UHGV virus genome: UHGV-0102869
Source of the DNA: a virus
Strand: one strand, 5' to 3'
DNA: 12,701 bases
Below the pieces are notes generated by a model. The model saw only the letters and a list, made by a program, of their open reading frames with translations. It had not been told where the DNA came from and searched no databases. Of this stretch, positions 5,075 to 5,472 are shown in pieces. How positions within the stretch are numbered: position 1 is the stretch's first letter; every line of letters begins with the position of its first letter. The position numbers and the translations under genes were made by a program.

Positions 5075-5265
5075 TCCAGTTCACGGACATGTAGGACATG
5101 TACCTCCAAAGCCCAGGCCACCATCACCAAAGTCACATAGGCTTTATGAGGATGAATTAATAATGGATTCTATATTGAGATGACCAAATGAATGCATTTA
5201 TATATACATGGAAAGAGGATCATATACCCTTAAAACCTCGTCCTTCACCGCCAGAACCGAAACCA

Positions 5266-5308
5266 AAATCCCGTTAAGTGCTGGGGATTTCCAGATTGTT
5301 AAAGAGCG
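5266..5308 (-). promoter_or_regulatory. nut-like antitermination site on the PL transcript: boxA (CGCTCTTTAACAA) followed 5 nt later by a hairpin (7-bp stem AAATCCC/GGGATTT, 11-nt loop)
   Basis: The minus-strand sequence at 5308-5296 matches the boxA core GCTCTTTAACAA exactly as I recall it from rrn and lambdoid nut sites. The hairpin at 5290-5266 is in the position of a boxB, though its loop is not lambda-like. Confidence 0.5.
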
Positions 5309-5410
5309 AAGCGTCCTGTTGGGCGCTTTTTTGTTGCTAACGAATCACCCGGTCATTCATACGCCACCGGCGGCTACTTCGTGGGCGTCCTGCCTGTTTG
5401 TTGTTTCTCT

Positions 5411-5446
5411 TGGGTACATTATGTATCTCAAAGGTACATTGTCAAG
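5411..5446 (-). promoter_or_regulatory. PL-like promoter with overlapping OL-like operator half-sites
   Basis: On the minus strand, -35 TTGACA (5445-5440) and -10 CATAAT (5423-5418) with a 16-nt spacer, immediately downstream of the repressor gene terminator. GGTACA repeats at 5413-5418 and 5433-5438 resemble the GTAC-core palindromes between cI and cro. Confidence 0.55.
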
Positions 5447-5472
5447 TATAAAAAAACCTGCCGAAGCAGGTT
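5447..5472 (-). terminator. Rho-independent terminator of the repressor gene
   Basis: Minus-strand AACCTGC-uucg-GCAGGTT hairpin followed by a T-run (TTTTTTTATAC), about 12 nt after the cI stop codon. Confidence 0.6.

Follow-up and report, generated by a model that had tools for sequence, protein, structure and literature searches.

In the leaders of the rrn operons, boxB, boxA and boxC act together with NusA, NusB, NusE, NusG, SuhB and S4 on an untranslated transcript that needs protection from the termination factor Rho, and no phage protein takes part. The rrn boxA alone is reportedly sufficient for read-through of Rho-dependent terminators, according to studies from the Squires laboratory. 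In phages lambda, P22 and 21, the nutL site combines a boxA, in P22 and phage 21 presumably of the consensus type, with a boxB; it lies downstream of the early-left promoter PL and works with N, an arginine-rich-motif protein encoded beyond it. Single consensus boxA elements that are independent of the phage protein N are known from the suhB 5′ untranslated region and from clustered regularly interspaced short palindromic repeat (CRISPR) arrays; there, the boxA stands close to the 5′ end of a long transcript that is untranslated and horizontally acquired, and its proposed role is the exclusion of Rho (PMC5725501, PMC7665894). Here we describe an rrn-type boxA in the virus genome UHGV-0102869 (12,701 nucleotides; this whole stretch is referred to as the window), which, judged by its map of open reading frames (ORFs) and its DNA matches, is a lambdoid prophage of the e14/SfV/SfIV/ST64B group, without an N protein. 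The boxA lies downstream of PL on the minus strand, and we lean towards reading it as an N-independent element of the rrn/CRISPR type, which would recruit Nus factors and thereby shield the PL transcript from Rho over the roughly 1.4 kb in which it is not translated.

The boxA (CGCTCTTTAACAA) occupies positions 5308-5296 of the minus strand, at about +104 from the PL transcript start, which we place near 5411; sequence comparison adds a conserved TCTGG extension (5308-5291). A first-pass annotation of the window, made from its letters, had noted an exact match to the boxA core, and this holds: the element shares the core GCTCTTTAACAA with the rrn leader boxA, is identical to it at 12/12 positions and is a perfect fit to the experimentally derived consensus of functional gamma-proteobacterial boxA elements, GYTCTTTAANA (PMC5725501). 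Chance 12-mer matches to the rrn boxA are expected about 0.002 times in the window (a rough estimate). The 11-mer GCTCTTTAACA has a single exact match within the window, and the only other near-match to boxA, with 2 mismatches, lies within the cro coding sequence and is at chance level. The rrn leader boxA sequence was found in 5426 of 5426 E. coli genomes, with a median of 7 copies. As in the rrn leader, a hairpin stands immediately 5′ of the window boxA. Unlike the rrn leader, the window element follows a repressor-controlled phage early promoter, its upstream hairpin is a terminator of the other strand, no boxC is recognizable and Nus binding is predicted.

The conservation of the element was followed in relatives collected via the structured leader RNA that precedes it (described below), that is, with an anchor independent of boxA. 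Across the 19 distinct variants obtained in this way, the core GCTCTTTAA(C/A)AATC is invariant except at the consensus N position, which is C or A; variation is seen in the base ahead of the core (C, A or T) and in the loop of the neighboring hairpin, and the sequence after boxA-TCTGG runs into at least 9 unrelated continuations. The first-pass annotation had allowed that the match might not be conserved in related prophages; among these variants it is.

The same element recurs outside this phage group. Phage T7 carries the identical 18-mer CGCTCTTTAACAATCTGG in sense orientation after promoter A3, in the promoter-proximal leader of its early promoters A1-A3. T7 is, to our knowledge, a phage without N, and we know of no established function for its boxA, which is presumably followed by the R0.3 RNase III site and then by the translated gene 0.3; in contrast to the window, the T7 early leader has no convergent genes. 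Many unrelated viral contigs have the 15-mer GCTCTTTAACAATCT, as a rule extended by GG, behind strong sigma-70 promoters, and none of the first ORFs after it there is arginine-rich. As a separate observation, in one viral contig (L064) a strong sigma-70 promoter and boxA are followed by sequence that, read by eye, looks like a transfer RNA gene cluster; if so, it would be a phage analogue of the rrn arrangement.

We judge the boxA of the window quite probably to be a functional NusB/NusE site of some kind. The promoter that would drive it, PL (TTGACA-16-CATAAT; 5445-5418, minus strand), has 11/12 promoter matches and is the best sigma-70-like site in the window, so that the good PL of the first-pass annotation stands as well. 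That annotation overlooked the structured leader, the terminator hairpin just upstream of boxA, and the placement of boxA in a mobile module that is tied to convergent genes.

Directly 5′ of boxA, the PL strand reads AAAAAAGCGCCCAACAGGACGC and the plus strand GCGTCCTGTTGGGCGC followed by TTTTTT. On the plus strand, these positions form an intrinsic terminator for convergent cargo genes (5308-5339; stem 5308-5329 plus T-run), with a 9-pair GC-rich stem followed by TTTTTTG, a folding energy of -14.7 kcal/mol and a z-score of -3.2. On the PL strand, 5308-5339 yields a weak hairpin (-7.3 kcal/mol), in which a C-A mismatch takes the place of a G-U pair, and in two variants (L078 and L106) full pairing is kept only on the plus strand, via G-U pairs. 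The hairpin adjacent to boxA thus appears to be under selection on the plus strand, and as read from its two strands the module is two-faced: genes that run toward PL meet a terminator, and the PL transcript carries a boxA. In this it differs from the suhB and CRISPR elements; the window boxA precedes RNA that is antisense to convergent prophage cargo and, as part of a mobile module, is joined to a terminator on the opposite strand. The module is present in 1090 of 5426 complete E. coli genomes (about 20%) and in PhiR29, PhiR49, SfIV, Kati, 689R6, 569R4 and Klebsiella phage Kp4882-1, in the last of which it stands next to an unrelated repressor and leader.

The occurrence of boxA follows that of convergent genes. 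Among 92 non-redundant leader-containing loci, with a convergent gene counted if it lay within about 1.4 kb, boxA is present in 21, each of which has a convergent gene belonging to one of four unrelated cargo families (phrog_6315, phrog_1244, phrog_5286 and a signal-peptide protein); such a gene occurs in 1 of the 71 loci without boxA (Fisher p = 8e-20). Scoring by ORF length only gave 17/19 loci with boxA versus about 5/69 without. In loci without boxA, a translated sense gene usually begins 10-40 nucleotides (nt) beyond the leader. The boxA also marks the entrance to convergent cargo in a locus that lacks the T-run hairpin (L075), and it is kept in two loci (L013 and L063) in which that hairpin is replaced by a different one after a translated sense gene. 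A separate scan of genome contigs with a terminator-hairpin pattern proved too generic, as 3 of its 122 matches were relevant.

Beyond boxA, the PL transcript has a long way to go before translation begins. Between 5411 and about 4033 it contains no supported sense ORF, and the first translated PL-sense gene, about 1.4 kb from the PL start, is a yfdP homologue (3652-4026, minus strand; phrog_204, E = 2e-50; annotated as YfdP in relatives). The transcript holds C-rich, G-poor windows, for example with C/G = 2.7 at 5216-5139, and untranslated RNA of this kind is a natural substrate of Rho. Because the transcript is untranslated and C-rich, and because of the rrn, suhB and CRISPR precedents, we read the boxA as an N-independent Nus-loading site. 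PL transcription would first yield the 61-nt structured leader and then cross the terminator-boxA module, where the opposite-strand terminator would halt convergent cargo transcription ahead of PL and cI. Transcription of the PL-sense region beyond boxA, which we infer, would give RNA that is antisense to the cargo and then structured and non-coding, untranslated for about 1.4 kb up to the yfdP-like gene. NusB and NusE would bind the boxA RNA and, with NusA, NusG and SuhB, could assemble on RNA polymerase into a loop-tethered complex that keeps Rho out; PL transcription might thereby become able to traverse the cargo slot. The comparative evidence favors this first of three options offered by the first-pass annotation, antitermination by boxA and Nus factors only, independent of N.

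Several points weigh against this reading. Two structured elements remain between PL and yfdP. The first is a small RNA (sRNA) element resembling STnc100/PasD (4150-4372, minus strand; Rfam RF02076, full-length alignment, 41.2 bits with E = 3e-6, against a gathering score of 47), to which sequence at the same position in the Salmonella phage ST64B is similar and which ends in a strong intrinsic terminator (about 4150-4198, minus strand; -20.5 kcal/mol). The second is a very stable branched hairpin with a 24-base-pair (bp) stem (4055-4155, minus strand; -47.5 kcal/mol, z-score -6.45), just upstream of the yfdP-like start codon and conserved in SfV, PhiR29_1 and ST64B. Complexes formed on an rrn-type boxA are poor suppressors of intrinsic terminators, and the sRNA-element terminator and the hairpin must be handled by something else, or the distal genes must have their own promoter. 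Moreover, ST64B, SfV and e14 share this downstream structured region yet have no boxA; the boxA is therefore not the general solution of the family. A second copy of boxA, or of the leader, was sought on the side of the early-right promoter PR in the window and none was found; the distance from cro to the next gene there is about 30 nt. The four cargo families were defined from boxA-positive loci, the loci are phylogenetically not independent, and the terminator half of the module would by itself predict part of the association with convergent genes. Finally, all cargo cassettes have these same bases, read on the plus strand, as their 3′ flank, and selection could act on that strand or on recombination at the junction. 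As a side observation on the second of the structured elements, the hairpin with the 24-bp stem might serve as an RNase III site or in translational control.

Between PL and the module lies the structured leader RNA, 61 nt long (5400-5340, minus strand), in which an alignment and a covariance model (84 bits in the window) define three helices. In the alignment, 97.8% of cells are paired and double compensatory changes occur at 4/5 inner-helix pairs; 0/500 shuffles reach the observed score, slid-partner controls collapse, and RNAalifold independently returns the same helices. The loop bases are conserved as well, and in most of the 36 PL promoter variants seen the leader starts 16-19 nt past the -10 element, in one copy per phage and with none on the PR side. 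SfV, SfII, SfIV, ST64B, phiNP, mEp237, mEp460, SPN3UB, SEN34, ZF40 and e14 carry it, as do Yersinia YeP1-3, phages of Pantoea, Aeromonas and Klebsiella, and T5-like Providencia phages. Rfam searches of the window and four related loci gave no match for the leader and returned only the sub-threshold STnc100 match and a spurious microRNA match. Because of its position and distribution, we hypothesize that the leader could be a functional replacement for nutL or put.

It is this RNA, rather than boxA, that may be the processive antitermination device, a cis-acting RNA that would modify RNA polymerase in the way of HK022 put, which needs no protein and acts via the beta-prime zinc-binding domain, but unrelated to put, with boxA as an accessory that accompanies convergent cargo. 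The covariation-supported structure, the conserved loop bases and the fixed spacing behind most PL variants fit such a role, as does the presence of the leader in N-less phages both with and without boxA. In ST64B, PL transcription must cross about 700 nt of non-coding RNA, including an intrinsic terminator, with no boxA to help. A put-like mechanism has also been suggested by its authors for LLS, an N-less phage whose early-left operon is reported to be closest to those of ST64B and phiNP (PMC12315714); these two phages both have the leader. The leader further resembles HK022 putL in its place directly after PL, its size, its two-hairpin design and its occurrence in N-less lambdoid phages. 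However, the covariance model, run across the HK022 PL-PR region, gives matches of at most 3.3 bits, none covering putL or putR; the leader is single-copy, with no counterpart on the PR side, its put-like function is hypothetical, and alternative roles would be in 5′ stability, in processing or in protein binding. We hold the leader as antiterminator to be possible, if rather unlikely.

Other interpretations of the leader were set aside. Homology to HK022 put had been considered from the shared strings CGAAC(A)GGC and GGAUGA, and the model finds nothing in HK022; as we read put from its sequence, AGGAU would presumably be a hairpin loop, and the same bases in the window leader are a covarying stem plus internal loop. 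An upstream ORF of 7 amino acids within the leader (ATGAATGACCGGGTGATTCGTTAG) was rejected, as its ATG is lost in many relatives and the bases on either side of it covary as those of a stem. We likewise discarded the idea that the gene next to the leader is a conserved N analogue; the first genes belong to many unrelated families, none arginine-rich, and no window protein co-occurs universally with the leader, the best being YmfL with 51 of 79 loci. In some relatives, a structured insert of about 170-180 nt with the closing helix GTGTCTTCGGG...CCCGAAGATAC lies between the leader and the next element (ST64B, L346, 2060-2215; also L118, L080, L121, L136, L160, L184 and L190); it has no Rfam match in the four loci searched (L118, L136, L184 and L190).

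The boxA match might also be a passenger that does nothing on the PL transcript and is simply where the plus-strand cargo cassettes and their terminator have their conserved 3′ flank or recombine. The boxA does always abut the 3′ end of convergent genes, the adjacent hairpin is selected on the plus strand and the mosaic breakpoints fall just past TCTGG. A 12/12 match to the rrn boxA is not, however, expected by chance at the rate estimated above, and the 18-mer after the T7 early promoters and the 15-mer plus GG in unrelated phages stand where there is no convergent gene. Variation is found only where the Nus-binding consensus is permissive, and the boxA stays where the terminator hairpin is replaced or missing. 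We regard a mere passenger as improbable.

Nus factors recruited by the boxA could instead repress, as at suhB, by blocking nearby translation and promoting Rho termination. This is very unlikely for the window, in which, as in the loci with cargo of families M and A, no sense ORF follows boxA; SfIV-type relatives do carry boxA 44 nt upstream of a 68-amino-acid sense ORF, inside the 50-nt distance by which suhB-like targets are defined (PMC5725501).

The first-pass annotation had further placed a boxB in a hairpin 5 nt downstream of boxA and had asked where N might be. The hairpin is physically present (5290-5266, minus strand; AAATCCC at 5290-5284 pairs with GGGATTT at 5272-5266 across an 11-nt loop), and its designation as boxB does not stand. 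At -8.7 kcal/mol (z-score -0.27), the fold of its 7-bp stem is equalled or bettered by 76 of 200 shuffled sequences. Homology to PhiR29_1 stops at 5279, within its loop, and that to SfV at 5339, ahead of boxA; among the loci examined, the hairpin sequence is common only to the window and one other locus (L021). On the other strand, its 3′ arm and the T-rich run read AAA-TCC-CGT-TAA, the end of a plus-strand ORF of 29 amino acids (5188-5277) whose TAA stop (5275-5277) falls in the loop. With a fold at chance level, no conservation and an overlap with a stop codon, the hairpin was rejected as boxB and is cargo-specific sequence rather than a conserved element; a lambda-type boxB is a conserved stem-loop that closely follows boxA and has a short, purine-rich loop, and this hairpin, the only one there, has neither the conservation nor the short loop.

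The finding that no N ORF follows the hairpin was borne out. The three minus-strand frames close 18, 43 and 65 nt beyond it, and the longest sense ORFs after PL (5136-4864, 90 amino acids, and 4399-4112, 95 amino acids) have no family matches and overlap a real plus-strand gene and the sRNA-like element. Neither the window nor PhiR29_1, a complete genome of 46 kb the annotation of which lists no N, yielded an arginine-rich sense ORF or similarity to the lambda N sequence used as query. SfII, SfV and SfIV are reported to be without N, cII and cIII homologues (PMC3851460), and the absence of N is a trait of the whole phage family. The two remaining options of the first-pass annotation are not supported. 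An N supplied from elsewhere finds no candidate in PhiR29_1, which has neither an annotated N nor a plausible arginine-rich ORF, and would be at odds with an N-less family. The reading as a prophage that has lost N and is defective fails because phages with the same PL-leader-boxA arrangement, PhiR29_1/2, PhiR49_1 and Kati, are deposited as complete phage genomes with named hosts; SfIV, which shares the arrangement, was isolated as a phage (PMC3851460). A classical lambda-type nutL served by N in trans, or left behind in a defective prophage, is therefore hardly tenable, since a boxA in the nutL position downstream of PL is set against the absence of a conserved boxB, of an N gene or arginine-rich candidate in the window and PhiR29_1 and, in the window, of a nutR counterpart after PR and cro, with the first translated sense gene 1.4 kb away, phages of the same architecture deposited as complete, and a family reported to be N-less (PMC3851460).

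The remainder of the window is in keeping with a prophage of this group. Its minus-strand genes comprise an integrase and homologues of yfdT, yfdS, yfdR, yfdQ and yfdP, together with a LexA-like cI repressor (5485-6159, minus strand, from the ORF map). Further genes are cro, a CII-like YmfL, YmfM, the replication protein O, a PerC-like protein and a methylase, and the window also encodes RusA, KilA-N, DUF968 and a Q antiterminator. The cI-PL region is 95-98% identical in the Escherichia phages PhiR29_1/2 and PhiR49_1, the Shigella phages SfIV and SfV and the K-12 prophage e14, and PhiR29_1, near-identical, is the phage closest to the window. An intrinsic terminator of the cI transcript (5473-5454, minus strand; an 8-bp stem then a T-run) lies immediately upstream of the PL -35 element. 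Operator-like ATGTACC half-sites number 5 in the window versus 0.9 expected; two overlap PL (5413-5419 and 5433-5439) and another lies in the PR region (6238-6244). As judged from this placement, the half-sites at PL and PR are probably operators of an e14/SfV-type repressor. The O gene contains 4.3 copies of a 15-bp unit, TCTGACCCGTCAAAA, at 7699-7762 of the plus strand; these repeats are probably replication-origin iterons, and they account for the spurious Rfam match to mir-5880 in the window.

The cargo slot of the window spans 4476-5278 on the plus strand, with homology to PhiR29_1 resuming at 4475 and that to SfV at 4413. It contains a membrane-protein gene (4580-5074, plus strand; phrog_6315, E = 9e-64) and, in tandem after it, two small proline-rich ORFs on the same strand, one at 5055-5183 with the tail PPKPRPPSPK and the other the 29-amino-acid ORF at 5188-5277 (MNAFIYTWKEDHIPLKPRPSPPEPKPKSR) with the tail KPRPSPPEPKPKSR. 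In the divergent relatives L051, L083 and L090, similar tails (GGHKP.QPRPP.PP.PKPR) are conserved as protein sequence. The tails bear a resemblance to proline-rich antimicrobial peptides or to polyproline ribosome-stalling motifs. A role of the cargo genes as a defense system was considered and dropped, as PADLOC gave no matches for them.

For the expression of early-left operons in the large group of N-less lambdoids, among them SfV, SfII, SfIV, ST64B, phiNP, LLS, e14 and relatives of Stx2c phages, the present analysis offers two mutable candidate elements, a boxA fused to a reverse-facing terminator and a structured leader RNA. We put forward, tentatively and as a doubtful extension of the sequence comparisons, that N-less lambdoids of the e14/SfV/ST64B/phiNP/LLS type swapped N and nut for signals made of RNA only, namely a put-like but unrelated antiterminator leader and a portable boxA cassette that would add Rho protection where convergent cargo interrupts translation. 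The 61-nt leader is previously undescribed and is a candidate new cis-acting transcription element, and the boxA-terminator fusion marks the entrance of the cargo slot in about one in five complete E. coli genomes. If the boxA does load Nus factors without N, control by Nus factors and boxA would be extended from ribosomal RNA, suhB and CRISPR arrays to prophage early operons, and this would explain how these phages tolerate morons inserted backwards into an operon.

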